A stretch of 64,000 nt of DNA. It comes from a virus. Lineage: Duplodnaviria > Heunggongvirae > Uroviricota > Caudoviricetes. A model generated the notes under the pieces. That model did not search any database. It saw only the letters and a list, made by a program, of their open reading frames with translations, and was not told where the DNA came from. Location: the IMG/VR virus record IMGVR_UViG_3300006153_000006; one strand, given 5' to 3'. Of the stretch, positions 2,429 to 64,000 are shown piece by piece. A program made the position numbers and the translations under genes. The number at the start of each line of letters is the position of its first letter. The first letter of the stretch is position 1.

Positions 2429-2511
2429 CCCGGTTGCGTATGGCCTTGGTTTATTGTAACTGTTCGCCTTATTATATCAAAGGCTGTCTGTCATATCAAG
2501 CCTTCAAAAAA

Positions 2512-2551: not shown

Positions 2552-2573
2552 CCTATTGCCGAGTCCTTTTCAT

Positions 2574-4083: not shown

Positions 4084-4187
4084 GGACGCTCCTTTCCGAA
4101 AATGGACTTGGCATAGTATTATGTATTATACCAAGTCCAAATTCTTTTTTCAAGAGACAGCAGTTCAAAATATAGAAATATAGAGAT

Positions 4188-5324: not shown

Positions 5325-5421
5325 TTTTAAGAATGGAGCAGGGGCAGTAGCCGGAATTGTCTTTCAGTTTCTGCTTGATTTCCCTGACATAGGTTTCATC
5401 GGGGTTTAATCTGATGTTCAT
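5239..5421 (-). CDS. Small Cys-rich protein, ferredoxin-thioredoxin-reductase-like (CPC ... C.C ... CHC)
   Basis: 60 aa with CPCS, CMC and CHC clusters; sits next to nrdG/nrdD, where such redox partners are commonly found. Confidence 0.4.
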   Translation of the reverse strand: MNIRLNPDETYVREIKQKLKDNSGYCPCSILKNADTKCMCKEFREMDEGMCHCGLYIKTK

Positions 5422-5940: not shown

Positions 5941-7832
5941 TTACGATGGCTGAACTCGTTTTTGCGGATCTTCTGATAGCTGCTGACAGGGGTGTAGAAA
6001 CCCACTACGCGAGCGTATGTATCCGCCACGGGTTTTCCGCACACAGGGCACTCGCTTGTGCCGATGAAGGCGTGCTTATCTTCGCAAACCGAGATCTTTG
6101 TTGTGAACGCGAAGTAGATAACACCCTGCTGAGCAACGTAGTTGAGCATATCCCATGCGGTCTCCTCACTGGGGAACCGCCCTTCGATGTTGATGTGAGA
6201 GATACAGCCGCCGCCACACTTCTTATCAAAGAGAGAGCCGAGACGGCACTTCTCCTGAATAGTACACTTCTCCATCAAGGGAATCCACTGGTTAGAGTAG
6301 ATGAAGTATTTATCCTGCTCATACAGAAGATTATCAGCAGCGCAGATAACTCCGGCACAGTTTTCTGCCGGGATCATCTCAAGATTGAAAGTGAAGTCGC
6401 ACTCAAAATTGTCTTTCACATCGTTGATGACATCAAGGATTTCGGTTGCGAACTCAACAGCTTCGTCCGAGTAGGACTTGTTGCCAAGCTCATCCTCTTC
6501 GATGAACCCAAACAGATCCATGACCTCATACATCCCAATGCCGCCGATGGTGCAGAACTGCTTGTCCAGCTCAACAGCACCGTCACGGTAGTTGGGGAGG
6601 AGCCCCTTCTCAATGTTGCGTTTGAGAATGTGGCGCATGGATGTGAGTGCCTTGCAGTCCAGAAGGACACGCTCGCGCAGAATGTCGAGGTATTTCTTTC
6701 TGTTCATTTTGCTCTCATAGGCGATACGAACGAGGTTCACTGTGCTGACCCGGCAGGAGCCAACACTCAGAGCCGTGCCTCCGATTGAGTTGATGAAGGC
6801 GTTGAGTTTACTGGTGTCTGACAACAGTCTGCAACAGTTGCTCAGGATACCAATATTGTCACTAACAAAGAAGTTGGAATCAGACCACTTGATATTGTGT
6901 GCGCTGGCCCAACGTGCGAACTCCTCATCCTGGAACTTGCCGTCCTTGTAGTACAGAGAGTAAGTAAGAACCGGGTAGGTGAACATATTAGTCTCACGGA
7001 TTTCCGAGACGACCTCCATAAACACCTTTTGAAGGGAGATAAGGTCTTCAATGTGGTCAATGGCGAGAGTCCCGTCCGGGAACTCCACGCCACCGAACAA
7101 AGACTCCAGGTAGGGCCGGTCAAAGATCGACACGTTGGTGAAGGAGCTCTGGTCAATGCGGAGGAAGGGCTGGTTTAGCCGATAGATCAGCTTCTGGAAC
7201 TGTTGACGGAGATAGTAGTCCGGGTTTTTCATGCAGTAACCCGCCTCCACATCGCTCTTCCAGAAGTACCATGCCCAGATCAGCACGTTTGGGAGACCGA
7301 CTGCGCCAGACTGCCGGTTGGATAGGAAGGACACGAACTCGATCACATCGTCAAAGTAAGTCGTCAAATGCTTCGGCGGCTGGTTATTGTAGTTGTCGAG
7401 AAAGAAAAGCCCCTCTGTAGCAAGTCTGGACAGGTCATTGGCCCAACAGTACGGGAAATAGCTTGCCGTAGTGCTGTCGTTCAGGTAGAACCCCTTGCTG
7501 AACTCCTGCTCCAGCCACTGCTTCGCCGTACGCAAGCCCCACTGCTTCTTGATGGTGAGAAAAATCTTGTTCAGTGCGAACAGTTTGTCCTCGCTTTTGG
7601 CCTTTTCGGTCATAAAGCTCCGGATATCCTTGTGATTGGCGTTTGCGTTGGGATCTATAGAGGCATCCGCCATCGTATCCTTATCAACAAAGTTGTCGAT
7701 AAACTCAGAGAAGTCAAGCTGGCTCGGGTGAATACCGTTGATGTATTCAAAATCCTCGCCGTACTTCTTTTTCAAGTCCTCAAGGCAACGTTCAAAGTCT
7801 CTTGACAGCTTCAAAGTTATATCCATTGTCAT
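5904..7832 (-). CDS. nrdD: Anaerobic ribonucleoside-triphosphate reductase
   Basis: 642 aa; C-terminal CPVCG zinc ribbon and glycyl-radical motif RVVGFYTP. Confidence 0.85.
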   Translation of the reverse strand: MTMDITLKLSRDFERCLEDLKKKYGEDFEYINGIHPSQLDFSEFIDNFVDKDTMADASIDPNANANHKDIRSFMTEKAKSEDKLFALNKIFLTIKKQWGLRTAKQWLEQEFSKGFYLNDSTTASYFPYCWANDLSRLATEGLFFLDNYNNQPPKHLTTYFDDVIEFVSFLSNRQSGAVGLPNVLIWAWYFWKSDVEAGYCMKNPDYYLRQQFQKLIYRLNQPFLRIDQSSFTNVSIFDRPYLESLFGGVEFPDGTLAIDHIEDLISLQKVFMEVVSEIRETNMFTYPVLTYSLYYKDGKFQDEEFARWASAHNIKWSDSNFFVSDNIGILSNCCRLLSDTSKLNAFINSIGGTALSVGSCRVSTVNLVRIAYESKMNRKKYLDILRERVLLDCKALTSMRHILKRNIEKGLLPNYRDGAVELDKQFCTIGGIGMYEVMDLFGFIEEDELGNKSYSDEAVEFATEILDVINDVKDNFECDFTFNLEMIPAENCAGVICAADNLLYEQDKYFIYSNQWIPLMEKCTIQEKCRLGSLFDKKCGGGCISHINIEGRFPSEETAWDMLNYVAQQGVIYFAFTTKISVCEDKHAFIGTSECPVCGKPVADTYARVVGFYTPVSSYQKIRKNEFSHRKWYNVLSKGEVM

Positions 7833-8043
7833 TCCTCCCGGTTATTGATCCAAGTATTTGCGGCTGAGAAGTTCAACAGCTCACCGTTGACCTTCAGAAC
7901 CGGGACTTGGTTGATGCCCAGGGACAACATTTCTTCAACAGAGTTGTTCTCCTGGTATGCGATCCCCTTTTCTTCCAGCTTTTTCTTCAACACCTTGCAT
8001 TTTGGGCAGTCAGTAGAATAAAGCACGATCATTTCCGGCATCC
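7829..8043 (-). CDS. nrdH: Glutaredoxin-like protein (NrdH-like)
   Basis: MPEMIVLYSTDCPKCKVLK: CPxC thioredoxin-fold start. Start chosen at the internal Met to avoid overlap with the upstream gene. Confidence 0.6.
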
Positions 8044-8060
8044 CTCCTTCCTGTTCTGTT

Positions 8061-8845
8061 TTACGCAGACTCTTCATTGAGCATTTTCCAACGAAACCTC
8101 TTGTCCGGCAGAATATGCCCGTTATCTTCCATTTGAAAGCGTTTATCGTAGTCATGTATTGTGTGCCCGTTTGGCAAAAAGGTTCTTATGCTGTCGGCGT
8201 CCCACTTCAACATAAGCTGCCATAAATCTGGGTAGTTGTGGCGCAGCTGACGGAGCTGGTCTACGCCTTGATTGTGACAGAACCAGCACCCACCCCGTGT
8301 GGAAGTGGCGTATATCGGAGACAGAAGATCGTTTTCTTCACACCACCTACGGCAATCTACTTCTGTCCATCTGACAGCGGCAAGCGGAGACACCTTTTTC
8401 ACACCGTCCAGCCTTGCTAAGCGCTCCGGTTCGTCTGCGGCAATGCCGACATATTGAACGGCATCCTTCGATTGCTTTGCGCATCTGTCTATTGCGGCGG
8501 TTTTCAGTCTGCTATTGCACCACGGGCCACGCTGCAAGGGCCATCCGTAAATTTTGCCTGCAAACTTCCCAGACTCATACTTTGTGTAGAACTGCCTCTC
8601 ATAGGTTAGCACCCCCCCCGCATGGCGCAGACGTGCTCTACCTCGATACCGAGCCTCCGCTTGATCTCTTTGTCGGCCTTCTCCTTAAACGCAACCATTG
8701 GAGGAGGGTCTGCCGGAATGGTGTCGGTTGCCCACAGCTCCGCTGTAACGATACGATCAATCGGCCAACCAAGTATCTCGCAAGCGCCTATGCAAGCCAT
8801 GCTGTCCTTTCCATAGGAGAGAGACAGGATATGTTCAGTTCCCAT
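8061..8845 (-). CDS. PAPS-reductase-like PP-loop ATPase, interrupted by a frameshift at a poly-G tract
   Basis: N-terminal piece (8606-8845) carries SYGKDS; C-terminal piece (8061-8612) carries YVGIAADEPERL and GGCWFC. The two frames meet at a C8 run (plus strand) near 8608-8615. Paralog of the gene at 36171. Confidence 0.6.
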
Positions 8846-9421
8846 TTATTTTTTCACTCTTTCGTATTGTCTGTATGTGATTTTATTGACCTCGCCATAC
8901 GTTTGCTCCCAGTTGTACACACGAACAGCCGGTATGCTCTTCTCGTCAATACCGCGATTGTGCGGGGCGTCCATCAATATCTTCTGGTATTTCCCACCGG
9001 TCAGATTGTGTACGCCGTCGTCAATCAAAACATCGCCGAGGATGATATGCTTGTCCGCAGTTATGATAACGTCGTTCCAGCTAAAGAACGGGAAGTACCG
9101 AAACAGAACGTGTTCCACCTTTGGGACGATTGTCTTATACCCAGCCGTCGTTACCACGAGCACCCTGTGACCGTCATCCATCAGACGTTTCACATACTTC
9201 TGCGCATCAGGTTTCGGCCTGACATCCTTCCATAGTTCCTCCGTGTCAAGAACGTTGAATATTTCCTGCTTCGGCAGACCAGGGAAGAATGTGGGAATGT
9301 GCCAATCCGTTATCTCGTCAGGCTTCACGTTGGTTCCGGACTTGCGGTTCAAGATATTGATCCACGCCGGAAGGAGGTCTTCCATCGTATCGTCCATGTC
9401 TGTCAAAACAGTAAGCTTCAT
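8846..9421 (-). CDS. HAD-family 5'(3')-deoxyribonucleotidase
   Basis: KLTVLTDMDDT HAD motif I and overall similarity to phage 5' nucleotidases. Confidence 0.6.
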   Translation of the reverse strand: MKLTVLTDMDDTMEDLLPAWINILNRKSGTNVKPDEITDWHIPTFFPGLPKQEIFNVLDTEELWKDVRPKPDAQKYVKRLMDDGHRVLVVTTAGYKTIVPKVEHVLFRYFPFFSWNDVIITADKHIILGDVLIDDGVHNLTGGKYQKILMDAPHNRGIDEKSIPAVRVYNWEQTYGEVNKITYRQYERVKK

Positions 9422-9981
9422 TCCATGACCTCCGCCATTGTCATCTGATGTGCGCCGTTCTGCCCCACCAGCCAATCAACGACCCTGGCGCGAAGCCCGG
9501 AAAGGCTGCCATCATTCTGAATAAAGCAGTCGGGTGCAACACCGTCCAGAGCTGTCTCGGAGGGATGCTGCTGCTGTTCTTTGGTGAGAGGGCTCTTGAA
9601 GCCGGGGCGTATGACGCGAATATGGGTCACATCAAAGCCGTGTGACTTCAGATACCCGATCTCGTTGGGGAAGCGGCAGTCTGGAATAAGCACATAATCC
9701 CATTCGTCCGGGAACATGGCGAGTATGTTGGCGACAAACTCCACCCACTGGTCTGGGTTTTTCTCCCGGATAATATCGGTGCCCACATACTGGAGGAGGT
9801 GGCGTCCGTATTCGTCTTTGTTTCCATCCCACCCAAAGAATGTACGGCAGATATATTTCAGCAGGTCGGCGTAGTGCGCCACAAGGACTTTGTAGCCGTC
9901 TGACTGGAGAGCTTCCTTCATCATACCGGCAGTCGTATCCTTGCCATGCTGTGCCTTTCCTGAGATACAAATTACCTTCAT
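9418..9981 (-). CDS. P-loop deoxynucleoside monophosphate kinase-like
   Basis: ISGKAQHGKDT Walker A; phage dNMP-kinase-like size and context. Confidence 0.5.
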   Translation of the reverse strand: MKVICISGKAQHGKDTTAGMMKEALQSDGYKVLVAHYADLLKYICRTFFGWDGNKDEYGRHLLQYVGTDIIREKNPDQWVEFVANILAMFPDEWDYVLIPDCRFPNEIGYLKSHGFDVTHIRVIRPGFKSPLTKEQQQHPSETALDGVAPDCFIQNDGSLSGLRARVVDWLVGQNGAHQMTMAEVME

Positions 9982-10643
9982 ATCTCCACCTCGATATCGT
10001 CAAAGACAACGGGGATGGCTTCTTGAAACGCCCGGAGAACAGGGATAGCTATCTCCCGCATCTGCGGATGCGCGGCCTTGTCCGTCCTCAGCTTGAAGAA
10101 ATGCCTCCACTCTCTCAGGTTCATGGTCACAACGATTTCTGTCTTGGTTGAGTTGTTCAGAACGGAACGGGCGATCTGCGGGGTCGCGCCAAGTTCAAGC
10201 AGATTGAAATAGTGCTTCTCCGCATCCTCGCAGGCGATGAGCCACTCCTGCATGATTTTCCCGACAGTGTTGGAATCCATCAGACGTATTTTACTGTCAA
10301 ATGACAGGCCGCCGCCGATGTTGGAATATGTAACAGAGTTCCCAAACTTGTCCTTTGAGTAATTGCAATAGCGTGTACTCTCCTGAGCGTAGCTCGCCAT
10401 ACGGTGACGAACGATCTCATGAGAAACGCCACGGTCTGTGACGAACCTTACAGAGACAGAGACGTGCTCGATCATCGCCTCATGTCCTCGCTCGATCAGA
10501 TTTGCCACAAAGCGGCGTGCGGAGCCATCTGTGATCTTGTCCTCGCTTTTGTAGCAGGTTCTGCCCACCGTTTCGATAGACTTCAATATCTCCTCCCCGT
10601 CGATGGGAGTAAGGATCTCGAAGCTCGGGTCTATGATTTTCAT
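9978..10643 (-). CDS. thyX: Flavin-dependent thymidylate synthase
   Basis: RHRMASYAQESTRY is the ThyX signature (RHRx7-8S). Confidence 0.85.
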   Translation of the reverse strand: MKIIDPSFEILTPIDGEEILKSIETVGRTCYKSEDKITDGSARRFVANLIERGHEAMIEHVSVSVRFVTDRGVSHEIVRHRMASYAQESTRYCNYSKDKFGNSVTYSNIGGGLSFDSKIRLMDSNTVGKIMQEWLIACEDAEKHYFNLLELGATPQIARSVLNNSTKTEIVVTMNLREWRHFFKLRTDKAAHPQMREIAIPVLRAFQEAIPVVFDDIEVEI

Positions 10644-10671
10644 TTGCTTCCTCGCTTTCAAGTCATGCCGT

Positions 10672-11277
10672 TCAGTAACAGAACACATGACCGCCAATTT
10701 TTTCGTATGTCTGCCTGTCCCTGAAGCCGGATCTACTGAAAAACAGAACATCCTTATCAAGCACAGTCTCACTCTCGTTCAGCACCTGCCTGATAGCCTC
10801 ATAGACCTGTTCTGTTGGCTCTGCGATAGAGCGGTTTGGCCAAGTGGAAAACTGTCCATCCTGTGATAGAACCTCATAGATGGTATCCGGAAACCGGTCA
10901 TGAAGCACCCGGTTGAAGATGACCTCAACAACTGCCTTTTGCCCGGTCAACGACTGGTTACCGGACTCAAGCCATGTAATCTGTGCCACAAGGTCGATCT
11001 CGTCCTGGGTGATAGACTCGGCGACAGACTGGTAGTATGGCTTGCAGTCGGTCTCCTTCTCCACCTCAACATACACTGTCTCAATGATCGGGTCTTGGGG
11101 GACTTCTATGTATACGGTCTCCGGTTCCTTCGGCAGAGACCAAGCGTATACGCCGAGGATCACTACCGTAAGACCGAGAATGATGTTTATCATGTATGAT
11201 AGCTTCTTTTTTTTCACGCTGCTTATCCTCTCTATATCAATGGTAGGCGAATACCGGGCGGCACCCGCCTCCCACAT
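10672..11277 (-). CDS. SleB-like cell-wall hydrolase with N-terminal membrane anchor
   Basis: AVVEVIFNRV ... YEVLSQDGQFSTW pattern of the Hydrolase_2/SleB domain; N-terminal TM helix. Confidence 0.55.
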   Translation of the reverse strand: MWEAGAARYSPTIDIERISSVKKKKLSYMINIILGLTVVILGVYAWSLPKEPETVYIEVPQDPIIETVYVEVEKETDCKPYYQSVAESITQDEIDLVAQITWLESGNQSLTGQKAVVEVIFNRVLHDRFPDTIYEVLSQDGQFSTWPNRSIAEPTEQVYEAIRQVLNESETVLDKDVLFFSRSGFRDRQTYEKIGGHVFCY

Positions 11278-11280
11278 GGT

Positions 11281-11856
11281 TTATTCTTTTCGTTCTGTCA
11301 TGCCGATGAGCATCTCGTCAAGCCCGGGCGTTGGCTCAAACTCGCCGTCAGAACGTCTTGTGACGATCACATTCCTACGCTTTGGCAGCTTCCCAAGGAG
11401 AGCTTTTCCCGGCATGGCCGACACAAACATTCTTTGAAGGCTGTGTGCGCCGGTATTGATACAAAAGCCTGTGTCTTTGAGCTTCAGCTCGTTCTTACTT
11501 GCCGAATGCTCCACCACAAAGACAGACCCTCCGGAAACGACAAGCATTCCAGGCTGATAGCACCGGACTCCCACTCCATACTGTTCGTGGAGAACGATCG
11601 GCCTTGCGTCATAGATCTCAATGCCCGTAGTCTGCTCGATCATATAGATGTCAAAGCCGCGAAACCTTACCACGTTTTGACTGCCGTTGTAGTAATAGAA
11701 CTTTTCAAGCACGCCCTGGCAAAGAGCCTCAGAAACCATCCACGTGTGCATCTGTGGCGTGACAGCGATACCGACATCTATTCCGCAGTTCGCCAGGATA
11801 GTAGCCATCTCTGCGGCTTTTTCAAGCAGCATGAGACTTGCGCTTTCACGGATCAT
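11281..11856 (-). CDS. Hypothetical protein
   Basis: 191 aa ORF; no motif recognised. Confidence 0.35.
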   Translation of the reverse strand: MIRESASLMLLEKAAEMATILANCGIDVGIAVTPQMHTWMVSEALCQGVLEKFYYYNGSQNVVRFRGFDIYMIEQTTGIEIYDARPIVLHEQYGVGVRCYQPGMLVVSGGSVFVVEHSASKNELKLKDTGFCINTGAHSLQRMFVSAMPGKALLGKLPKRRNVIVTRRSDGEFEPTPGLDEMLIGMTERKE

Positions 11857-11859
11857 ATC

Positions 11860-12192
11860 TCACTCACCTCCAACGACCGGGGATACCTCGCAGTTATCGA
11901 CGATACCGTCGAAACAGTTACAGCAAAGGCGAAGGTCTATCTCTTCCGTGTCATGTACGCTCCCATATCCGACACGGGTATGTATGTGGAAGTTCTCCTG
12001 TATGTCGAACTCGTCGAGCGGTTTCCCACAACAGTTGCATACTGGATACGAACTCACCATGGCTCCATCAATCATGTCTGCTATGATTTGCTTCTGTTCT
12101 TCTGTCAGGTTTCGCCACACGTCCGGAAGTTCGCTCAAAACGTCTCTCACATTCTTTGGCAAATGAAACACCCCCTTCTTTACCAAAGTCAA
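11860..12192 (-). CDS. Zinc-ribbon protein
   Basis: CNCCG ... CCNC Cys pairs. Confidence 0.35.
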   Translation of the reverse strand: MTLVKKGVFHLPKNVRDVLSELPDVWRNLTEEQKQIIADMIDGAMVSSYPVCNCCGKPLDEFDIQENFHIHTRVGYGSVHDTEEIDLRLCCNCFDGIVDNCEVSPVVGGE

Positions 12193-12204
12193 GTTTGGTA
12201 CGCA

Positions 12205-12525
12205 TTATTCTGTGGCCGGCGTATCGGGCGTTTCCGGGATCTCCGGAGTGACGGGGGTATCGGGCGTTGCAGGCGTATCGGGTGTGGCGGGGTCAGACGG
12301 AGTGAGGAACGCTTCGACCTCGTCTGCGCAGTCCATGCACAGCTCCTTCATCCAGACGATGTCGCTGGGCTTCTTGTCGATGGGATAGCGCCGATTGTCG
12401 ATCTTATCATCGTCATCGCCGCCACGGCACACGGGCCCGAACATCGGGCGGGTACATTTGACCGTCCGAACCTGCTCCGGCTTCTCGATGATCTTCTTGC
12501 ACCTGTCACAAATCGTACACTTCAT
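12205..12525 (-). CDS. Zinc-finger protein with C-terminal Pro/Thr repeat tail
   Basis: CxxC pairs followed by (TPDTPA)n encoded by GGCGTATCGGG-type tandem DNA repeats at 12210-12300. Confidence 0.35.
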   Translation of the reverse strand: MKCTICDRCKKIIEKPEQVRTVKCTRPMFGPVCRGGDDDDKIDNRRYPIDKKPSDIVWMKELCMDCADEVEAFLTPSDPATPDTPATPDTPVTPEIPETPDTPATE

Positions 12526-12540
12526 ACTGTTTACCTTCTT

Positions 12541-15500
12541 TCAAATTATTTTGTCATAGGAGTAGAGATTGAAGTATTGGCCATTCCGCTTGTATTCACG
12601 GCAGTAAATGATGTCGTCCTTGTTGATGGGAGACTTCATATATGTGGTCTTGAAAACGGTGAACCTCGCTTCTATCCCGCTTCCTATTGACTTTGTATAA
12701 ATGTTGTATCCAAAGATGGAGTTATCCGCCTTCCTGCGGGCAGGGTACACGTCCATCACATACAGCTTGCGGCGATCGCTGTCCTTGCCGGAGACATACC
12801 CGGCATACCCCATCGCTTCACAGAAATTTCTGACCTTGACCGTATCGCTAAAATCCTTCAGGTTCATGTCTCTGATGACCTCTTCCGTCTCACGGAGAAT
12901 AGACATGATATCCAGAAGCGTATAGCTCTTCGCTATACCGCCGGACTTTGTGACGCCGACGGCATATTTCTGAACGATACCCTCAAGCTTCGTTCCGTCC
13001 ACGGTCTCTTTCTTGATTTGCTTTGCGTCTCCGCCCTTGAACAGGTTAAAGATATTGAGCATCTTGAACAGGGCGTTCTGGTTCCCAAATTCAGAGAAGA
13101 AGTCGATCTGTATCAGTATCTCAAGCTGTCGTGAGTTGAGACTGCTTTGATGCTCGATGTCGTACAGAAGATCCATGAAGTATGTATAGTCCTTTTTCTT
13201 GGACATCTCGTACAGCTCCTCCGCCACTGTTGAGTTCATGTACTTCACCGAGGCAAGACCCTTGGCGATCGTCCTCTTTTCCTCATCAAAGAAGTAACTG
13301 CTTCTTGACATACCCCACTTCGGCATGGTGACGGCGATGAGCCGCTTAGCCGCATACTTCGTTATCATGGAGGTCTTCTCTTTGTTGTCGCCAAAGATAT
13401 TTAAGGCGGCTGTCAGGAACTCAAGAGGATGGTAGTAGCGAAGATACCCGCAAATGTACCCGACTGCCGAATAGGCATCGGAGTGGTTCCATGAGAATGC
13501 GTAGGCTGAAGCGTCCAGAATGATTTGCAGGAACGGCTTGATGACCTCCCGGCATTTCTCCACGGTAATGTCGTAATGCTCAGACGAATATCTGACGAAC
13601 CGTTCCTCGATCTCAGGAAGGAGCTTCTCCGTTCCTTTCTTTTTGGCGATGGCTCGCCGAACCGTATCGGACTCCACGTTTGAATATCCGCAAAACTCCA
13701 CAAGGAAACGCATAATGGTCTCCTGCATGGCGATATGTCCAGCTTCCTTGGCGAGCAGGTCATTCAGTTCCCGGAAACCGTTATCGTAGAACTCGCCTCT
13801 TGCAACACTTTCCCGAAAGCTGGCGCAGGCAGGTCTCAGAACGCCGTTACCAAACGACATCCACTTTAGCATGGAGAAATCTGGCACCTTCTCATGGGCT
13901 ATGGCAAGCGTTCTGTCGGACATGAAATTTTTGAGGAACGCCTTTGCTGAGTCAGACTCCCACTGGAAGATCAGAGTTGGGTCATCACGGATACTCTTCC
14001 AGACCTCCATATCGTCAAGGTCTGTGTTGTCCGGGTTGAGCCGCTCTATCCCAAGAGTCTTGCAGGTTTCGTTGATAACGCCCAGGTTATCAAGGCCAAG
14101 CAGGTCGAGTTTCACATACATGAGCTCGTCCAGCTCTTTCATATTTATCATCGAGACCGGGTAGTCCGATGTGGAGACGCTGCAAAGCCCGACTGTCTGC
14201 GCGATTGGCAGGTCGCTGATGAGGACACCACTCGGATGAGTACCGATGGATACTACTGTTCCACGGACGATATCCACATATGAAAACAGTTCCTTGTATT
14301 TCGCCCTGATCCTTTCACGGTCAGCCTCGCTTTTGCTGTCGAGCGCTTTGTTGATCTCTGAGACCTCGCCAAGAGGAATGCCGAGGGCTCTCGCAACGTC
14401 TCTGACAGCGCCCTTTTCCTCTATCGTGTTGAAAGTGATGATCTCGGCGGACTGTACGTTTGGTAGGTTCATCCTGTCCCGCAACACAAATTGCTTGACC
14501 GTATCTCTGTCCTTCCCGGAGTAGTCTGTGTCGATGTCTGCATTTGTCACTCGGGATGGGTTCATAAAACGGAAAAAGTTGAGGTCAAACCGGAGACTGT
14601 CCATCTGCGTGATGCCCAACAGATAGGCCACCATACTTCCAGAGACCGAGCCACGCCCGTACCCGCTCTGGATGCCATGTTCTTTCTCCCATTCACGCAG
14701 ATATGTCTGAAGGAGCATGAAGTCAATGGACTTGGTCGCCTTATATACCTCGATTTCCTCCGAGACCACCTTGCGAAGACGCTCCTCCCCATGACGCCGC
14801 ATGGCATATGGATGACTCACCATGGCTGCCTCTATCTTCTCTTCAAAGGTCTTTTCCGGGTCATCGTAGATATGCGGATACTTTGTGCTTTTATCGAGCT
14901 CAAAGGGTTCTACCATATCGGCCATCCGGTTTGTGTTCTCTATGGCCTCCAGGTACACATCAGCGCTTAACGCGCCCTGGTTCTCATAGGCTTCCACAAG
15001 CTGCTCATAGCTCTTGAACTTCAGATCCCACTTGTCTTCATCCGGAAAGTTGATGTTCTTGGCCTTTTGCAGGATTGAACGGCCCCTCTCATGCTCCTCG
15101 TTCAAAACGTGCGTATCCGTCCCCGCTATGAGTGGGATGCCTGTATCCTGACTGAGTGCGGAAAGCCTTTGATTGTAAACGGCCTGCCGTTGCTCCATGT
15201 GATGCCCGATCTCAAGGAAACACCTGTGCTTGTTCTTTTTCAGAAATTCGAGGAATTTTTCTTGTACATAGCCGTTTGCCTTGGCCAACACGCCACCGAT
15301 ACAGGCGGTAGTGATGAGAATGTTGTCAGACGTTCCGAAAAGCTCCTGAAATGAAATTCTTGGGACATAGTAGAAATGGTTGTCTTTCCTGTTGAAACTG
15401 TCAGACACCAACTGGTTCAGCTCCAAAAAACCATCGTAGTTTTTGGCGATCAGAACGCAGTGGTAGTTGTCTCTTATCTTCTCGTCCAGGCTTTCCGTAA

Positions 15501-18082: not shown

Positions 18083-18870
18083 CTCCTTGACAGTTGGTAG
18101 TAATCACAATGGTCATTCATCTCACACAGGTATCTGCACTTGAAGTAGTCCATGTTCGGACGGAAGTTTTCCTCGTTTTCGATCTGGCAGACCATGTCGG
18201 AGACCCACCGAATTGCCTTGTCATAGTCCTGCTTTACAAATGGCTCTTCGATGAAAAGGTTGTTCCGGAAACAGTTGAAGCACAGCTTATGAGGGAAGAC
18301 TCCATATGTATCTCTAACGAAAGAGGAATAGACGTAGAGCTGGACAAGGTATTCATCCAGTTCTATGTCGGCCTTTGTCGGCGTTGCCCGGTGGCTTCGG
18401 GGCTTCAAAGTCCTGGACTTGTTGTCGATCACAAGAAGCCCGCCGTCCTTTGCGCGGTCTACCCGGTCAATATACCCCACAAACGGGATGTTCCCTACCG
18501 TGGTTTCGACCTTCTGCTCGACGGCCACCACTTCGTTTTCGCTGGGCTGTATACTCTTCAGATACTGAGAGCCGGCGACAAAGTAGTTTATAAACACCTT
18601 GTTGCTGGGCGCACGGCCCAGAACGTGGGTCTTGAAGCCCGTCAAATACTCGGTATGTATCTGCTCCGCTGTCTTTTCACCGGAGTAAAACGCCGCGATC
18701 AGCTCATGGACAAAGCTGCCGTAATCCGAGAAAAACATATTCTTTCTTTGTCCCTTCGGATACCTGATGTACTTGAGATACCATCTATATGGGCAATCTG
18801 TGAACGCCCTGATCCTGGAATAACTCCATGTCATATCCTGGATCAGCGGTTTATAACTCACGTCTCCCAT
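18079..18870 (-). CDS. PD-(D/E)XK nuclease, Cas4/RecB-like, with C-terminal Cys cluster
   Basis: 263 aa with a C-terminal Cys cluster (CFNCF, KCRYLC, HCDYY), consistent in size and position with a Cas4-like PD-(D/E)XK exonuclease. Confidence 0.6.
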   Translation of the reverse strand: MGDVSYKPLIQDMTWSYSRIRAFTDCPYRWYLKYIRYPKGQRKNMFFSDYGSFVHELIAAFYSGEKTAEQIHTEYLTGFKTHVLGRAPSNKVFINYFVAGSQYLKSIQPSENEVVAVEQKVETTVGNIPFVGYIDRVDRAKDGGLLVIDNKSRTLKPRSHRATPTKADIELDEYLVQLYVYSSFVRDTYGVFPHKLCFNCFRNNLFIEEPFVKQDYDKAIRWVSDMVCQIENEENFRPNMDYFKCRYLCEMNDHCDYYQLSRR

Positions 18871-46696: not shown

Positions 46697-46986
46697 AATG
46701 TGATCTCATAGAGAATAATAGACATCTGGAGACGGAGTCTACGGCGTCTTGGATGTGTGGGAGCCGAGTCATGTCGGCGAACTGGTGTGCCATCCTGTTC
46801 TGATTTTGGTGCGAGATGTCTCGATTCTGGGGGTTTGCTGCGATCGGCATCGCGTATTTCCGTCGCCAATGACTCAGCGTTCGAGCTGGCGTGTTTGCGC
46901 AGCCTCCTGCTGCCCCGTCTTTCATCCAGCTATTTGTTACTTCTACCATCGGTGAGAAGCACCGCGAACGGTTATACATCACATTT
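46697..46986 (-). ncRNA. Structured intergenic element (b) with 9-bp terminal inverted repeats
   Basis: AAATGTGAT ... ATCACATTT termini. The 3' 55 bp is near-identical to element (d), and the central hairpin motif is shared with (a) and (c). Confidence 0.45.
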
Positions 46987-46995
46987 GTTTTGTAA

Positions 46996-48183
46996 TTATC
47001 TCAGGTCTTCCCTAATGCACGCTATGATATCTACGCCATACTTTTTGCTTGCATGTTCGACGATCTTGTCTATCACATCCTTTTCCACCATCCGGTAGTA
47101 GTTGTAATAGCCATCGAGCGTTCTGATATCGCCCGCCTCCCATGGTGTACCGTTTTTCCGGTCAAAGATGTAATTGTGGATCATATTCTGGAACTGCTGC
47201 TTCCGCCGGTACCCTATGGTAATATTGTTGTCCTTGTTGAGCATGACACCGAGGTTCCAGTTCCGCCCAGCAGAAGACCCATACCGTGTCTTTTTGACGT
47301 TCAATGAGAACGGCGCATGATACTCTTCCAGCGTCCTCAGCAACAGGTCTTGTACCTGCCAGATGTCGAATGCGTACCTGGATGAGATGATGAAATCGTC
47401 CGCATACCTGGTATATATCATCCTCTGCTTCAGCGGGGTCTCCTCGCCGTCAGCGCCGGTCAGAACACCGGCACGCTCAAACTCCATATACCTCAGCCTT
47501 TTGTTCAGGTTAAAGTCGATGGGGATCATCATGATGTTTGTAATCGTCGGGGACACCGGGGTGCCTTGAGGCAGACCCCCATTCAGAGTTGCAAGTTCAA
47601 GTGCCTTCTCAAGCTCAGCACGCCCTTCCTCTGTCCTAACGACCTCGCTGAACGGGAACACCATGCTGAACTGCTGCATCATAAACTCCAAAGTTGTGCT
47701 GCCAAAGAAATCATGGAGGTCAAACTTCCCAAACCAGCGGCTCTCGTTCTGCTGGTGACGCTTTACCGCATCAATGGTACAACGGCCCTTAATGTATGCA
47801 AACGCGGAGGTATGATAAAGGGCGTGAAAGTCCTCCTCAAAAATCAGCTTGAGCTGACGGAGCGCGTTCATCAATTCCGGCAGAGGCTCATCTATTTTGC
47901 GCAGACCACCGGACTTCTTTGGGATATGGAATGTATGGTACAAATCACTCCTCTTGGACTCTCTGAGCTTTTCAGTACCTGCATTGAACTCCTTCAGCTT
48001 TCTAACCAAGTAGCCAATATTGAGGCCATTTGTAAAGCGTTCGCTCACTTCCTCAACGGCATACGTTTTTGTGTTTCCTACACTTGTGTTATACGGTGCA
48101 TAATCAGAAAAGCTTTGCGAGATAAACTCTTCAAAAGTCATCTGATGATACATCGGAGATTGATGGACTGTAATGTACACCAC
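46996..48183 (-). CDS. Reverse transcriptase (retron/unknown-group type; QGxxxSP and YADD)
   Basis: RT motifs FHIPKKSGGLRKIDEP (1/2), GKFDLHDFFGST (A), LPQGTPVSP (4) and YTRYADDFII (C); GTG start with GGAGG RBS. Confidence 0.85.
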   Translation of the reverse strand: MVYITVHQSPMYHQMTFEEFISQSFSDYAPYNTSVGNTKTYAVEEVSERFTNGLNIGYLVRKLKEFNAGTEKLRESKRSDLYHTFHIPKKSGGLRKIDEPLPELMNALRQLKLIFEEDFHALYHTSAFAYIKGRCTIDAVKRHQQNESRWFGKFDLHDFFGSTTLEFMMQQFSMVFPFSEVVRTEEGRAELEKALELATLNGGLPQGTPVSPTITNIMMIPIDFNLNKRLRYMEFERAGVLTGADGEETPLKQRMIYTRYADDFIISSRYAFDIWQVQDLLLRTLEEYHAPFSLNVKKTRYGSSAGRNWNLGVMLNKDNNITIGYRRKQQFQNMIHNYIFDRKNGTPWEAGDIRTLDGYYNYYRMVEKDVIDKIVEHASKKYGVDIIACIREDLR

Positions 48184-48516
48184 TTTCGTTTCCTCCTTCC
48201 TTTTTTAGTTGCCTGTAACCAAAATAGAGGCTGCTGCCTGGTGCTTTGGATCTATCTTTATGGTTTGGCTGCAAGTGTCATCTGAGCTACGTCATCTGAC
48301 ATGTGGTCTGGCATTCGATTCATTGCGGCTGTATTGTTTGCTGGTGTCCTGTCGGGTTTCTGGTGTTTCGTGACATTGAGATTCTTTATTACTCAAGCTT
48401 GAAGACGTCAAGTAGCTCCTTGTGCGCCTCTTTCTTTTCCTGGCTATTTGTTACTTCTGTCTTCGACGAGAAGCTCGTTTTTTCAAAACGACATTTCGTT
48501 ACAGGTTTTTGCGCAC
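48184..48516 (-). ncRNA. Structured non-coding element (c) immediately upstream of the RT gene, with 8-bp flanking inverted repeats
   Basis: CCTGTAAC / GTTACAGG repeats at 48205 and 48500 in an a1/a2-like arrangement; contains the UCGUUUU/AAAACGA hairpin and the shared GCUUCUC ... GAAGUAACAAAUAGC motif. Confidence 0.45.
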
Positions 48517-49422
48517 TTATGGCTGCGCCATACCAAAGAATGCAAACATCTCTTCTGTGGTGCTCGGTCTCATTTCTTTAACACCCTTTGGCAAAATCCT
48601 ATATTCCTTATCCCCGATCTGCTCGACTCTCGATTTCGGGTTAAGAGATACCAAAGGACGTACGCCACGGAACTCACTTGCCATTGCGGAACCCAGATAA
48701 CTGGACTTGTCAACGGTAGCGTTTGAACCACGGAATCGCTTGCCCATATCTGCAAGGAAATAACTCAGGTAGTATCTGTCTCCATCTGCCATTCTCGTTG
48801 TACCCAAAAGCTTTTTGGCAAGGTCTTGCGTCGGGTGCGCCCGAACGCCCCGCCGCTTCTTGAACAGATTGAGCCTGTCATTATCTCCATACATATCCTT
48901 AACGGTCGGGATACGAACTAACGACGTGAATTCACCCGTATCAAGCTTTGTGGTTTTCTCCAAGAGCGCCGCTATCTCATAGCTGTCAAAGTACCGTAAA
49001 AATCCTGCGTGCTGAGACTGATCGCTCATTGACGGTAAATACTGACGCGCCGGGGGCGCGTCATACTTATGCTGCGGACTATACCATCCATCCTTTGCGC
49101 TGTTCAGATATTGCAGCAAAGTCGATACCTCAAAGTGCGGATTTCCACGGCGCAAGACTCTGTTTTCCCCGCTGCCATCATACTCATAGCCGCTCCCGAT
49201 CTCATACCAGCCATCAGGCCGATAGTCACCTGGCCACTCTTCTGTTGCATCGAGAACGCAGATGTCCACTACGCCCTCGGAAATAAAATCGCAGTTTGGA
49301 GTTGCCTTCAGCCATCTGAGCGGCGCCGGGGTGGCATCACCACCAAAGGCTGTGTACTGACCAAAGACCAATACATCTCCGAGGCTCATGCTTCTTAATG
49401 TACGACTCATTCTTTTTTTCAC
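48517..49422 (-). CDS. Hypothetical protein
   Basis: 301 aa ORF between elements (d) and (c); no family recognised. Confidence 0.35.
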   Translation of the reverse strand: MKKRMSRTLRSMSLGDVLVFGQYTAFGGDATPAPLRWLKATPNCDFISEGVVDICVLDATEEWPGDYRPDGWYEIGSGYEYDGSGENRVLRRGNPHFEVSTLLQYLNSAKDGWYSPQHKYDAPPARQYLPSMSDQSQHAGFLRYFDSYEIAALLEKTTKLDTGEFTSLVRIPTVKDMYGDNDRLNLFKKRRGVRAHPTQDLAKKLLGTTRMADGDRYYLSYFLADMGKRFRGSNATVDKSSYLGSAMASEFRGVRPLVSLNPKSRVEQIGDKEYRILPKGVKEMRPSTTEEMFAFFGMAQP

Positions 49423-49440: not shown

Positions 49441-49714
49441 CTATGTGATCTCATATAGATTCTGACTCATCCGTACAGGATCCGGAAGATTTTCCTTCAG
49501 TGGGCGGAGGAGGCGTTCGGCGCCAGATGCTTTGGGTGGCTCCCCTGAATCGGACACTCTTCTGGGTGTGGTTCGCTTCTTGAGCGCACCTGACCAGCAG
49601 CGTCTCTTGCCGGCGAGCTCAGGTGCACTGGGCTGCCTGGTGTCTTCTTTCTCTCAGCTATTTGTTACTTCTACCATCGGTGAGAAGCACCGCGAACGGT
49701 TATACATCACATAG
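49441..49714 (-). ncRNA. Structured intergenic element (d) with 9-bp terminal inverted repeats
   Basis: CTATGTGAT ... ATCACATAG termini, covarying with element (b); 55-bp 3' identity to (b). Confidence 0.45.
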
Positions 49715-53740: not shown

Positions 53741-53809
53741 ATTTTTCCTCATATTGTTTGCTGTTTTTTTCGTACCACTTTTCGTGGTACGGATTTATTC
53801 GATTAGGGA

Positions 53810-54469
53810 TTAGAATGCGAAAGCGGGGGCCAGCCCAAAGGAAAGACTCGCATAGTTGTAGTAGGCGCCGCCGTCGGTGTACACAAAGCAGAAGTAGCTG
53901 CTGCCGTTGCAAAAAGGGGAACGCAACAGCAGATATTCTCTGTCGCCTCTTCTCACTTTGTAGTACGGCACATCCTCCTGCCGGTAATATTCATACCAAT
54001 GTCCCTCGCCAGGAGCTGAGTAGATGCACCTGCCGAACAGCTCTTTCTCGGACTTGATAAAAAATCTATCCTCGGTTTCTATCAGCTCATTGCTGCCATC
54101 AAAAGTGTTTGCGGTCAACTTTAGAACGGGAACCGCCACGTCGATGATCTCGTCCGGCATGAGTTCAAATATGCTTTCGCCTGGCTCATTCATCATCCTG
54201 CGCAGCTTGGTCGCTGCCCAAGACCCCTCATTTGTGTCTGCATCATTCCATGGATAACGCTGTGGCATACAATCAACCATTTCCCACGTCAGAGGTAGAA
54301 TAAGCCCGTCTTTAGTTCTGTCGTGATTTCTCCCAATAATTCTAAACTCGACTGGGGTTCCGTCTTTCAGAACGGCACTTTTTGTATCGCCAACATTGAA
54401 CATGGAGGCTGCCGCAGGGCCAAAACCCCTTATCGTCCTCCATGAATACTCCTCCAAGGCTCTTGGCAT
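53810..54469 (-). CDS. Paralog A of a putative receptor/ligand-binding protein with a DGR-like variable C-terminus
   Basis: 219 aa; homologous along its length to the 59627 gene. The last 35 aa lie between the conserved LLRSP and GLAPA flanks and differ only at codon positions 1 and 2. A GC-rich GGGCTGGCCCCCGC stretch and a hairpin follow. Confidence 0.5.
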   Translation of the reverse strand: MPRALEEYSWRTIRGFGPAAASMFNVGDTKSAVLKDGTPVEFRIIGRNHDRTKDGLILPLTWEMVDCMPQRYPWNDADTNEGSWAATKLRRMMNEPGESIFELMPDEIIDVAVPVLKLTANTFDGSNELIETEDRFFIKSEKELFGRCIYSAPGEGHWYEYYRQEDVPYYKVRRGDREYLLLRSPFCNGSSYFCFVYTDGGAYYNYASLSFGLAPAFAF

Positions 54470-56187: not shown

Positions 56188-56633
56188 ATGAATGGGGCGG
56201 GACAACGCCCGCCCCTATATAAATCAATCCGCTACCACCCAGCCTGGTGGTTATCCCCACGGTCACATACTCACCCGACAAACCATTCTCTCCAGGGTTT
56301 TGTAAAGCGTTTTTAATTTTTCTTTGAGCGCCACTGCGCTGAACTTTACACCCTTATAAGCGTTGAGGGCTGAATGTTAATCCTTGATCGTTAAGTCGTA
56401 AGCTTTACAGCTCATTGTAACCGCACACATTGCGGTTTCATCTTGATTTGATACAAGATATTTCAAAACTTTTACATACCCAAAATGTAGGTTTTGAAGT
56501 AGGAGTTGAACCTACTAACGGCTTATCAAGCCAATACCAAGGAGCGCCTTTTCTTTTTTACTTTACTTATCTGTAATGGCGCAAAAACAGAGAAGGAATA
56601 TGATTTGGGGTTTTCGGGTGGCAGCGAAATTGA

Positions 56634-56900: not shown

Positions 56901-57542
56901 TTAATACTCGACAGAAATCTCGGTCATGGCGTTGGACACGGAAAGGGTGGAGTCCACATCAACCATGAAGGCGGAAATCTCGGCCTCCAAAGCCTCAATC
57001 TTTTCCGCGACCTTGAGAGGATCCACCAACTCCACGGTCTGGGCGGCGACAAAGTCGGCCCGAACCCTCTTGACGTCATCAGAAGCGTTCTTCATGTCGG
57101 TGTTGCCATAAAGGGACTTGATGTACTCGTCTGCCCGGTGTTCCAGCTCATCGCCGTTTGCCTTGTCGGCAGACTGCTTGGCCTTTGCATAGGAATTACG
57201 GAGCTCAGCGAGAAGCAGCTTCTTCAGCTCCATACCGTGGTTCTTCATCTCGATGGCCTCCGCCACAGTGTACTCCTTGCCAGCGATCGTCACCTTGGTG
57301 GTCGCGTTAGACAGAACCACCGCCCGCTTGATGGCATCACGGCGGCGAATGAGGTCAACGACCTTGTCGTAGCCAGCCTCCATGTTCTTACAGAACTCCG
57401 CAACAGAAACGCCAGAAATCTTCTGGTTAGAGTGCTTGTTGGCTGTGATGAAGGTAGTCTCGTCGATGGCACCATATACACGAGAATCCAGCGTCTTTAA
57501 CTCGCTCAGAGCCTTATGCACGTTCATGGTTTCTTTGGTCAT
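56901..57542 (-). CDS. Hypothetical coiled-coil protein (possible scaffold-like)
   Basis: ORF only; helical and charged. Confidence 0.3.
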   Translation of the reverse strand: MTKETMNVHKALSELKTLDSRVYGAIDETTFITANKHSNQKISGVSVAEFCKNMEAGYDKVVDLIRRRDAIKRAVVLSNATTKVTIAGKEYTVAEAIEMKNHGMELKKLLLAELRNSYAKAKQSADKANGDELEHRADEYIKSLYGNTDMKNASDDVKRVRADFVAAQTVELVDPLKVAEKIEALEAEISAFMVDVDSTLSVSNAMTEISVEY

Positions 57543-59173: not shown

Positions 59174-59583
59174 TGGTGGAGGTGGGGGGAATCGAACCCC
59201 CGTCCAAAATCCCTACTCGCTCAAAACATTCTTACGCAATATCCATTTCTTCGTTATGCCTTGCGGCGGCTCGATTAGAAATAGCAAGAAACAGCCGGGG
59301 CGTACCAGCTCTGGTACTGCTTCCACCACTCGGTTTTATGGCAGCCGAGAACCACAAAGGTGCTGAGTCTATACATACCCACAACCTTTACCGGCCCAGC
59401 GAGGTCTGCTGTGGGAAGTTCGCCTTTGCTCAGGCGGCAGCTCCCTCAAGAGCGGCAATCAGAGCGGGGTGAACCATAACGATCTCAGTGTTATTGTTGG
59501 CATTTGTGTTTGTTGTCCCTTAAGGTGGTAACATCCCTGCGTGTTTTGAGTTATCAGAACCCTGTCGAAACCATTACACCCCC
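59174..59583 (-). ncRNA. ssrA: tmRNA (ssrA)
   Basis: 5' GGGGGUGUAAUGGUUUCGACAGGG matches the tmRNA 5' consensus. The 3' end GGACGGGGGUUCGAUUCCCCCCACCUCCACCA gives the T-arm, an acceptor with G3-U70 and encoded CCA. An internal ORF ending in alanines (ALIAALEGAAA) is a possible tag. Confidence 0.75.
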
Positions 59584-59626
59584 ATGTTCCCGCCCCGTTT
59601 GGGGCGGGGATTTTTTTGATTTTAGA

Positions 59627-60457
59627 TCAGGTACATAAAGCGGGGGCCAGCCCAATGGAATAACTCGCACTGGTGTAGTCGGCGTTGCCGTTGGAGTTCA
59701 CACGGCAGAAGTTGCCGCTGGCGTTGTAACTAGGGGAACGCAACAGATTATATCTTCGGTCGCCATCCTTATCCTTTTTATAATAAGGAATACCCTCTTG
59801 CTTATAGAAGTCATACCAATGTCCCTCACCAGAGGCAGAATAGAAGCAGCGACCGTATAGCTCGACCTCGCTCTTGAGCCATACCTTGCAAACCTCCCGC
59901 AGGATATCACTACTTCCCCCTCCGGCTGAGGTAAGCTTAATGACTGGCTTGATGATGGCCTGAAGTTCATCGGAACACCGCCCGAGGAAGTCTCCATTCA
60001 ACCATTTCCCTGCATCAGAAGTGATAAAACCGCCTTTGTTTGTCCCGCATTCATTCATACAGCGATTTTCCTTGTACACATAGACCATGTCCCAAGAGAT
60101 GGGTGCTTTTCCACTCCCATCAGCAAGGTCGTCATGGTTAAATCCGATAATCTGCCAAACAGCGATGTATCCATCCTTCATGTGATCATGTTTGGTTGCA
60201 CCGAGTGCAAAAAACTGCTGCGCATTTCCAGACTTGCCAATACGATCAATGGCATCCCAGCTGATATGGTCGAGATTGGTAAGTGGGCTTGGCGGAACAG
60301 CAACAGAGACTGCGAGCGGACACGATGCAACAGCTTTCCGCAAAGCGTCCTCCAACCCTGTTACCGTAAAATTATCAAGTTTTAAGACGATCTCCATCTT
60401 CATCCCTCCATCAACCAATTTATGTCTTGCGCCCTTGGAGGCTCGAACTCCAGACAC
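59627..60457 (-). CDS. Paralog B of the putative receptor/ligand-binding protein, with an AAC-rich DGR-like variable C-terminus
   Basis: 276 aa; C-terminal SYNASGNFCRVNSNGNADYTSASYSI encoded by AGT TAC AAC GCC AGC GGC AAC ... with many AAC codons. Same LLRSP/GLAPA flanks and GC-rich 3' stretch as paralog A; a GC hairpin follows the stop. Confidence 0.5.
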   Translation of the reverse strand: MSGVRASKGARHKLVDGGMKMEIVLKLDNFTVTGLEDALRKAVASCPLAVSVAVPPSPLTNLDHISWDAIDRIGKSGNAQQFFALGATKHDHMKDGYIAVWQIIGFNHDDLADGSGKAPISWDMVYVYKENRCMNECGTNKGGFITSDAGKWLNGDFLGRCSDELQAIIKPVIKLTSAGGGSSDILREVCKVWLKSEVELYGRCFYSASGEGHWYDFYKQEGIPYYKKDKDGDRRYNLLRSPSYNASGNFCRVNSNGNADYTSASYSIGLAPALCT

Positions 60458-60500
60458 TCGCCTTAAAAGGACGATGCTTTCCCAACTGAGTTAATGGCGC
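60428..60500 (-). tRNA. tRNA-Lys (anticodon UUU), no encoded CCA
   Basis: Anticodon stem UCGUC/GGCGA with loop CUUUUAA, T-arm UGGAG UUCGAGC CUCCA; one A-G mismatch in the acceptor and a weak D-stem. Confidence 0.55.
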
Positions 60501-60501
60501 A

Positions 60502-60932: not shown

Positions 60933-61364
60933 ATGTGGAGAGCTGGCGAATTTCCGCAAGCTCTCCGATGGGTGCTTATGGACTCGAACCATTGATACCC
61001 CAAGACTATATTCTTTATGATAGCAAGAAAGGGAGGTGAAAAGATGGCAGGGAAAGGAGGCCGCCATAGTCTTTGGTATACACCCATGAAGGGGTTGGCG
61101 GTTTTCCTTTATGTCCTCACCAGCCGCCAGAAGGGAGCGTTGTTTATGTGTGCCGCCGGAACTCCGCCCGGAAATCGGCGTGACCCCTCGCAGACCCCGC
61201 TCTATGTCTACTTGCCTTATTACGGTGGCCAACCGCCCGATATGTGTTGGCAATGTTGAGTTTGCAACCTCTCATGCTTCTATCATAACGGGACTAAGCG
61301 TTGGGGTGGAAAACCACCCCGCCGGAATCGTACCGGCCCAGGCAATAGTGCCATCGAACCTCGC

Positions 61365-63378: not shown

Positions 63379-64000
63379 AATAGTTACTCCCTTCTTATTT
63401 TTGTATCAAGCGGTTTACCGCTCAAGAAAGCCGCCGGAGTTGATACCCCGGCGGCTCTATCAACGGTAAACCCCACGCCGGTAGTGCCGGCCCCGCATTT
63501 CAACGGTGGGCCGTCAATACGACCAACCGTTGTTACGGTATTCCGTGGCATAAGCGTCGTTTCTAACGCCTACCGGCTCATGGGGGAAATTTTCATTCTT
63601 CACAATACTCGACCAAATTAGGTTTTCATACCATGCGCCTTCTGTTCGGCTCCTCGGAGCATAACCACCCTGGGGTGGGAACATTGGACGATACTAATAG
63701 CCCTCAATGATCTTTTTCGCATAGCCTTCAGTTCCTCAAGCCGAGTTTAGGCTCATAGGCACAAACCTCCGGGGATTTTCACAATCTCGAACCCGTAGCT
63801 TAATTCTACGGCACCGGCGACAGATGGATATACCATCAATGCTTTTCTTTAACGTCCTCAAGCTGGACACAAGGCCATAGCTGGAAGTGCCGGACATCTC
63901 CGGTTGTATTCCGTAGCCTCTCAAGGCGGGGCGGCTTGCCCTTGCCTTTCACCCTACACCGCAAAGGGGCAACCCCCTTTTGCCCAAACGTGGGCGGCGG

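Follow-up and report, generated by a model that had tools for sequence, protein, structure and literature searches.

The window, as we call the 64,000-nt stretch of phage DNA analysed here, carries two related genes on its minus strand. Gene A (53810–54469) encodes a protein of 219 amino acids that is essentially one DUF6273, or C-type-lectin-like, domain; gene B (59627–60397) encodes 256 amino acids, with a domain of the same kind (Pfam DUF6273, 8.7e-11) and an N-terminal extension of about 40 amino acids. An earlier note on this DNA had extended gene B to 60457, where the reading frame is open to a GTG. Because a tRNA-Lys gene occupies 60427–60501 and so overlaps the longer frame (59627–60457), the ATG at 60397 is the more likely start, and the gene is called as 256 amino acids on the source contigs. 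The two genes are paralogues, as had been claimed (40% identity over 218 amino acids, E = 1e-49).

Near their 3′ ends, A and B share the identical flanks CTGTTGCGTTCCCCT and GGGCTGGCCCCCGCTTT, previously described as GC-rich and IMH-like. Between these flanks 15 of 26 codons differ, at 20 nucleotides, with 12 of the differences at the first codon position, 8 at the second and none at the third. The earlier account was right about the confinement of differences to positions 1 and 2, and wrong about the count, as its figure of 18 differing codons is reached only by including three codons past the 3′ flank, where third-position differences reappear. Elsewhere in A and B, 190 aligned codons contain 283 differences, 43% of them at the third position; the chance of finding 0 of 20 there is about 1.3e-5 (Fisher’s test, p = 2.4e-5).

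Conserved elements at the ends of the variable repeats

The variable stretches of A and B fall within repeats (VRs) that are homologous to a template repeat (TR) described below. VR-A occupies 53819–53924 (minus strand; 106 nt homologous to the TR) and encodes residues ~183–217 of protein A, and VR-B occupies 59637–59741 (minus strand; 105 nt homologous to the TR). These are the two VR genes that had been recognized before; a third repeat, VR-C, also exists, on the plus strand at window-equivalent positions of about −5469 to −5359, where it forms the C-terminal end of a 713-amino-acid target.

A GC-rich element with an IMH-like end closes each repeat on its 3′ side (GGGCTGGCCCCCGCTTTC at 53819–53836 in VR-A and GGGCTGGCCCCCGCTTT at 59637–59653 in VR-B, both on the minus strand), and this 3′ end is identical across VR-A, VR-B and VR-C. 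The VRs read GGGCTGGCCCCCGCTTT where the TR reads GGGCTGGCCCCCGATTT, a C/A difference that is fixed in all VR and TR copies: every VR copy, among at least 13 distinct VR sequences, has GCT (as GCTTT), whereas the invariant TR has GAT (as GATTT). This fixed A-to-C change at the end of the homology looks like an IMH/IMH* pair.

Each gene end is followed by a GC hairpin, a feature of the earlier note that holds for both genes and extends to the third target. The hairpin after VR-A (53771–53791, minus strand) is CGTACCAC GAAAA GTGGTACG, that after VR-B (59589–59608, minus strand) is CCCGCCCC AAAC GGGGCGGG, each with an 8-bp stem, and that after VR-C is CCGCCAGC GAAA GCTGGCGG; all three have stems of 8–9 bp and loops of 4–5 nt. 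Folded as DNA, the VR-A hairpin reaches −8.5 kcal/mol (z = −5.85) and the VR-B hairpin −12.4 kcal/mol (z = −3.9), with 0 of 200 shuffles folding equally well in either case, and the VR-C hairpin has z = −4.9. At all three VRs the hairpin starts 28 nt past the end of the TR homology and 21 nt past the first base of the stop codon, across a similar A/T-rich spacer (AATC.AA.AAATCC). No run of T follows the hairpin in the sense direction at any of the three sites, so the hairpins are not typical terminators of the target genes; the BPP-1 element includes an inverted repeat, rich in GC, downstream of its IMH (PMC5758913). A gap of 5 nt separates the VR-B hairpin from the 5′ end of the tmRNA gene (59174–59583).

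A retron-like reverse transcriptase within the window

The window itself contains no TR, as had been reported from inspection by eye. BLAST returned no match, the best other ungapped match to the VRs was 50 of 111 positions, and an all-against-all scan of 60-nt windows recovered only the VR-A/VR-B pair and an unrelated 60-nt repeat. There is a reverse transcriptase (RT) gene in the window (46996–48183, minus strand), and its earlier description as retron-type is borne out: it carries QGTPVSP and YADD, matches the NCBIfam retron St85 model (8e-45, with 153 bits against a cutoff of 235) and matches PADLOC retron RT types, including RT_II-A and RT_I-A, at 1e-41 to 1e-20. The sequence immediately upstream (48184–48516) has no Rfam match, no significant fold and no msr/msd-like structure (z = 0.46).

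The earlier note had raised the idea that this RT diversifies VR-A and VR-B as an unconventional partner of a diversity-generating retroelement (DGR), and its position speaks for this, at 5.6 kb from VR-A compared with 58 kb for the DGR cassette described below. We nevertheless consider such a partnership very improbable. The RT motifs are QGTPVSP and YADD rather than [I/L]GxxxSQ and its best matches are to retron families; sequence resembling the TR occurs neither nearby nor anywhere else in the window; the upstream region has no significant structure; and the genome has, at another site, a complete DGR whose TR matches. With no TR near this RT and a DGR-clade RT in the cassette itself, a role for it as partner is unsupported. 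The enzyme is retron-like and unrelated to the DGR, and phage-borne defence or counter-defence is a possible function.

The retron-like RT gene is downstream of a 301-amino-acid open reading frame (ORF) (48517–49422, minus strand) with a weak Hoc-like/Ig PHROG match, and the pair sits between ThiF/E1-like and metallophosphoesterase genes. A direct repeat of 60–67 nt (46918–46984 and 49646–49712; 58 of 60 positions identical) brackets this retron-like cassette, and a 113,841-bp contig from another sample ends exactly at the repeat. Its 16-nt core, AGAAGTAACAAATAGC, is present in three copies, the third at 48443–48458, against 0.03 expected. We considered the repeat as an insertion scar and found this doubtful: copies of the core lie upstream of three consecutive minus-strand genes, which makes a repeated promoter or leader more likely than a scar.

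The template repeat and its cassette

The TR and its RT lie outside the window, one of the two outcomes that had been foreseen, about 4.5 kb before position 1 in the same phage. We reached them through the integrase gene of the window (2818–4083) on other contigs, in loci that extend to ~7 kb before position 1. One of these loci, L012, is 99.986% identical to positions 1–14083 of the window (2 mismatches), with its plus strand corresponding to the minus strand of the window. There the TR occupies 18536–18646 (minus strand), equivalent to window positions −4562 to −4452 on the plus strand, and reads TGGGAGCGTTCCCCT AAT TAC AAC AAC AGC AAC AAC TTC TGC AAT GTG AAC ACC AAC GGC AAC GCC AAC AAC AAC AAT GCG AGT AAT TCC AAT GGGCTGGCCCCCGATTTC. 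This is the third copy predicted by the earlier note, with A at all VR-variable positions, beside an Avd-like gene and a DGR-type RT.

The gene order of the cassette in the direction of transcription was taken from a second locus, L022. It begins with a 114-amino-acid protein with a weak Mtd_N match and continues with the 713-amino-acid protein of the tail-fibre module, which has Big_2-like repeats and, at its C terminus, a DUF6273 domain with VR-C as its last part. Then follow an Avd-like ORF of 186 amino acids (window-equivalent −5198 to −4638, plus strand), the TR, an Rfam RT-2 RNA (L012 18276–18520, minus strand; about −4436 to −4192; 129 bits against a gathering score of 40, E = 7e-31), an RT ORF of 426 amino acids that ends at window-equivalent −3016 (plus strand), and XkdX/DUF4376, holin and endolysin genes. 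The RT-2 match stops one nucleotide before the ATG of Met35 in the RT ORF and the PHROG alignment begins at residue 34; Met35 is probably the start of the RT, which begins 160–260 nt 3′ of the TR, depending on the choice of start codon. Measured from the cassette, which has the opposite strand orientation, VR-A is at 58.3 kb and VR-B at 64.1 kb; should the genome be a circle of 114 kb, the way round the other side is ~56 kb and ~50 kb, respectively.

For the cassette we read contigs that come from other samples (L012, L022 and others) rather than the contig of the window. Its placement on the same molecule is based on the 99.986% identity over the 14-kb overlap and from the accessory protein cluster P0121 (100% identical), the longest contig of which, at 114,058 bp, has the size of the window’s own contig. 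In L015 and L025 (JGI 3300006204 Ga0081182_1000073), the Avd-like gene is preceded by a 139-amino-acid ORF that matches Pfam Sulfatase (PF00884) and by a truncated 193-amino-acid ORF, in place of the DUF6273 target, and there is no VR-C. An alternative form of the cassette could account for this, as could a chimeric assembly at the hypervariable site.

The cassette RT carries LGVEPSQ and YMDD. Its best PDB match is 8ub7_A (1e-12), the RT chain of the Bordetella DGR ribonucleoprotein, and its best NCBIfam match is a group II RT, with retron models weak. By its sequence it is a DGR-clade RT, with motif 4 of the [I/L/V]GxxxSQ type. The 186-amino-acid accessory protein matches Avd by predicted fold only, as an Avd-like four-helix protein with a long C-terminal helix; searches of Pfam, NCBIfam, PDB by phmmer and PDB by profile returned no sequence match to Avd. 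The structural model thus identifies it as the predicted Avd-like accessory determinant of the cassette.

Substitutions fall at template adenines

The core of the TR has 35 adenines in 106 nt, and it is at these adenines that the VRs depart from it. All 21 mismatches between the TR and VR-A and all 15 between the TR and VR-B are at TR adenines (P ~8e-11 and 6e-8, respectively); the 21 comprise 20 mutagenized sites and the fixed C of the IMH, and the 15 comprise 14 such sites and the same fixed C. The copies in other loci behave alike (17 of 17 mismatches for VR-A in L005, 15 of 15 for VR-B in L007, and 13 of 13 and 23 of 23 for VR-C in L012 and L014), and across the VR copies of this phage there are no substitutions at the 67 scored non-A positions. 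The TR itself is identical in 14 contigs. Its homology to VR-A and VR-B starts at GCGTTCCCCT, and that to VR-C reaches ~15 nt further upstream, with two more mutated adenines.

The 34 mutable adenines of the TR make up 15 AAY codons and 4 codons with a single A. They permit up to 15^15 × 4^4, or ~1.1e20, peptides, among which stop codons are impossible; each C-type-lectin-like domain could thus have up to ~1e20 variants of its ligand-binding face.

We considered whether the pattern might have arisen without reverse transcription, by ordinary divergence of paralogues under diversifying selection or by gene conversion among the three lectin genes. The three genes are indeed paralogues with identical flanks, and recombination could keep such flanks uniform, but several observations leave this explanation with a practically negligible probability. 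Third positions, which hold 43% of the differences elsewhere in the same genes, hold none of the 20 here, and all of the substitutions coincide with adenines of a template that is non-coding, invariant and adenine-rich. The fixed difference between A in the TR and C in the VRs marks a direction, and gene conversion among VRs cannot generate novel sequences in which only adenine sites have changed. VR-A and VR-B are, we are almost certain, non-adjacent variable repeats of one canonical DGR, which has its cassette a short distance beyond the window, on the opposite (plus) strand.

Variation of the repeats between samples

Evidence for diversification comes from comparison between samples. Relative to the window, L004 has 3 differences over 11,375 aligned nucleotides and L005 has 18 over 11,353, all of them in VR-A; L007 has 19 differences over 5,800 aligned nucleotides, all of them in VR-B. 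Every one of these changes, at 3–19 sites per comparison, is at a TR adenine, and the surrounding DNA has none, so that the hypervariation confined to these positions that the earlier note had proposed to look for is present in the population data.

Proteins tell the same story. The closest database proteins to A (P0001–P0006) are 92–95% identical to it; they match exactly over residues 1–170 or more and diverge almost only at residues 185–211, between LLRSP and GLAPAF. The exceptions are three residues immediately before this interval, in P0003, P0005 and P0006, and a single N-terminal position of P0006. For VR-C there are at least eight versions. VR-B has the same sequence in six of the seven loci that carry it, and may therefore turn over more slowly, having been diversified less often than VR-A or VR-C.

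The uniformity of VR-B is also what favours a reading of VR-A and VR-B as fossils, written by the DGR in the past and now evolving like ordinary genes at sites remote from the cassette. This we regard as highly unlikely. VR-A has changed at 3 sites in L004 and at 18 in L005, and VR-B at 19 in L007, against no change in the other 5.7–11.3 kb compared; all changes between samples are at TR adenines; the VR holds almost all of the differences in the six further protein variants; and both sites retain an intact IMH and hairpin, just as the TR and RT are intact and invariant. Both remote repeats thus appear as active targets of the DGR.

In L004 the three differences cluster in the 3′ third of VR-A, a pattern that fits a short conversion tract from the IMH end, in what is a single case. 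Several contigs end at or beside a VR; this fits heterogeneity within samples, which contig ends do not prove.

The target proteins

The C-type-lectin-like fold that the earlier note had named as a candidate is seen in the structural model of protein A, built with 54 homologues (pLDDT 89.2). In the model the VR encodes the predicted ligand-binding surface of this C-type-lectin-fold target. One template serves to rewrite the binding tips of three lectin-like proteins. The 713-amino-acid target is presumably a receptor-binding tail protein.

For the small proteins A and B (219 and 256 amino acids), we weighed whether they are free binders rather than receptor-binding proteins of the virion, which we think rather unlikely. 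Their genes are in an accessory region rich in tRNA and tmRNA genes, 58–64 kb from the cassette and inverted with respect to it. As free binders, soluble or expressed by the lysogen, they could bind surface glycans of the host or of competitors, or act in superinfection exclusion or counter-defence; if this were true, one template would diversify structural and non-structural phage proteins in parallel. Between A and B, a 213-amino-acid protein (56901–57542, minus strand) matches phrog_1491, annotated as ‘tail fiber protein’ (E = 5e-55), at a site far from the main tail and lysis module. The match hints that this region may encode virion-associated proteins, and it leaves room for a structural role of A and B.

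The phage genome

Protein A has an exact match on a JGI metagenome contig (3300006139|Ga0080702_1000031) of 114,058 bp. Window positions equal positions on this contig minus 50,030, and the contig stops 28 nt past the window. The 113,841-bp contig from another sample has a different break point and runs on past the end of the window, which suggests that the phage genome is circular or circularly permuted, at ~114 kb. Our loci cover ~88.6 kb of this (window-equivalent −15.2 to 73.4 kb), and the three VRs are those within the covered portion.

The genome encodes a YonO-like polymerase of the RdRP family, YonV_C, DNA polymerase III alpha, NrdD, ThyX and dUTPase, together with an integrase with Xis, an endolysin, eight tRNAs and a tmRNA. 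The phage is large and temperate and comes from gut-type metagenomes, and its relatives were found in Clostridiales and Oscillospiraceae metagenome-assembled genomes (MAGs). In the annotated phage collection, it has only tRNA matches at the DNA level and relatives at ≤33% identity at the protein level. The viral_contigs collection gave 0 matches when scanned with the VR pattern (N at predicted TR-adenine sites), and metagenome_contigs gave 0 when scanned with the A-free flank and third-codon positions. Because the latter pattern worked on the window, we take both collections to be without this phage.

Between 45668 and 60932 there are eight tRNA genes, all on the minus strand (Thr twice, Pro, Ser, Ala, Ile-tat, Lys and Glu). 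The tmRNA gene is full-length (59174–59583, minus strand; 114.9 bits) and has the tag ANNNTEIVMVHPALIAALEGAAA. In this region, the tRNA and tmRNA genes are interspersed with both remote DGR targets. Rfam RAGATH motifs match at 63767–63837, 63460–63593, 61211–61340 and 56544–56628, all on the minus strand; RAGATH-16 is over its gathering score (79.1 against 65.6 bits), and RAGATH-4, RAGATH-36 and RAGATH-27 are under theirs (E = 3e-11 to 5e-3). A cluster of several candidate structured RNAs lies near the targets.

An identical 421-amino-acid integrase (2818–4083 in the window) is also found in L013 and L017 (GCA_948791565.1 and GCA_965645665.1), where its contexts are bacterial housekeeping genes and a different, smaller prophage with an S24 repressor, PemK and ERF. 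It is indexed in 242 blocks of the collection, and the integrase module appears to be common to different elements.

A model for diversification and comparison with known systems

[quoted passage not shown] By analogy, a complex of RT and Avd-like protein would bind the RNA of the TR and spacer and copy it into cDNA, random nucleotides would go in opposite template adenines, and the cDNA would then replace a VR. Three features would determine which target is used and in which direction transfer proceeds: the GC-rich 3′ element, the IMH, which is GCTTT in the VRs and GATTT in the TR, and the hairpin 28 nt downstream. All three genes have their own copy of these cis elements, so that a single TR and RT would act in trans, over 58 and 64 kb in the case of VR-A and VR-B.

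The likeness to the BPP-1 DGR (mtd–avd–TR–brt) is close. Both have the order target, Avd or Avd-like gene, TR, structured spacer RNA and RT; in both, substitutions are adenine-specific, the VR is at the C terminus of a C-type-lectin-fold protein, and a GC-rich 3′ end of the VR with an IMH/IMH* difference is followed by a GC hairpin. The best structure match of the RT is 8ub7_A, and the accessory protein resembles Avd by fold. The systems differ in that BPP-1 has one target, whereas here there are three, two of them inverted and at 58 and 64 kb; in the target domain, which is Mtd in BPP-1 and DUF6273 here; and in the Avd-like protein, which here has 186 amino acids and a long C-terminal helix, without detectable sequence similarity to Avd. 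The spacer RNA differs as well: RT-10 has been placed in BPP-1 (PMC5737381), and here Rfam RT-2 is in the position of a DGR spacer RNA, between the TR and the probable start of the RT. The presence of RT-2 inside a DGR, in the interval from TR to RT, supports a speculation of Weinberg et al. (PMC5737381).

DUF6273 is known as a C-type-lectin-like DGR target domain in gut phages, including phages with two targets and small targets that consist of DUF6273 only (PMC10743442), and Faecalibacterium prophages have a large and a small DUF6273 target, with the VR at the C terminus of the domain (PMC11792537). The Faecalibacterium phages Lelie and CP11 (PMC11792537) and the nd4 and nd12 systems, including the tentaclins (PMC10743442), share with our phage an origin in gut Firmicutes, DUF6273 or C-lec targets with the VR at the domain C terminus, and the pairing of a large structural target with a small DUF6273-only protein. 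In contrast to those phages, which are of ~30–50 kb, the phage described here has ~114 kb, with a YonO-like RNA polymerase, DNA polymerase III alpha, eight tRNAs and a tmRNA, and it has three targets, the two small ones in a tRNA-rich region far from the cassette. It should be a useful case for asking what small DUF6273-only targets do, which the literature on gut-phage DGRs leaves open (PMC10743442). Surveys restricted to short contigs or to regions adjacent to the RT overlook such targets (PMC8144416), and the element here illustrates this blind spot for targets remote from the RT.

Wu et al. (2018) described phage DGRs with adjacent and non-adjacent targets, nearly always within 50 kb of the RT (PMC5758913). 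As in those elements, one target here is adjacent and the others are elsewhere in the same (pro)phage, an arrangement that implies action of the RT and TR in trans; the distances here, 58.3 and 64.1 kb along the linear map or ~50–56 kb along the other arc, are at or just beyond the range of that survey. The present element is a clean natural case in which three genes of a large phage are served in trans by a single DGR template and RT. Each target has the same recognition module (a GC-rich end, the IMH and, at a constant distance of 28 nt, a hairpin) and all three are diversified against a zero-divergence background, which makes the element a useful test case for the minimal needs of a DGR target site.

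Chromosomal DGRs with several targets, such as those of the Treponema denticola TvpA family, Legionella LdtA and Stenotrophomonas, diversify surface lipoproteins. Unlike them, the element described here and all of its targets travel with a phage genome. It shows every defining DGR feature that was tested. Its architecture is known, with target distances at the upper limit of those reported. We see in it a clear instance of an established system, ordinary in kind and without a new mechanism; what stands out is that two of its targets are inverted and non-adjacent, at 58 and 64 kb from the TR.
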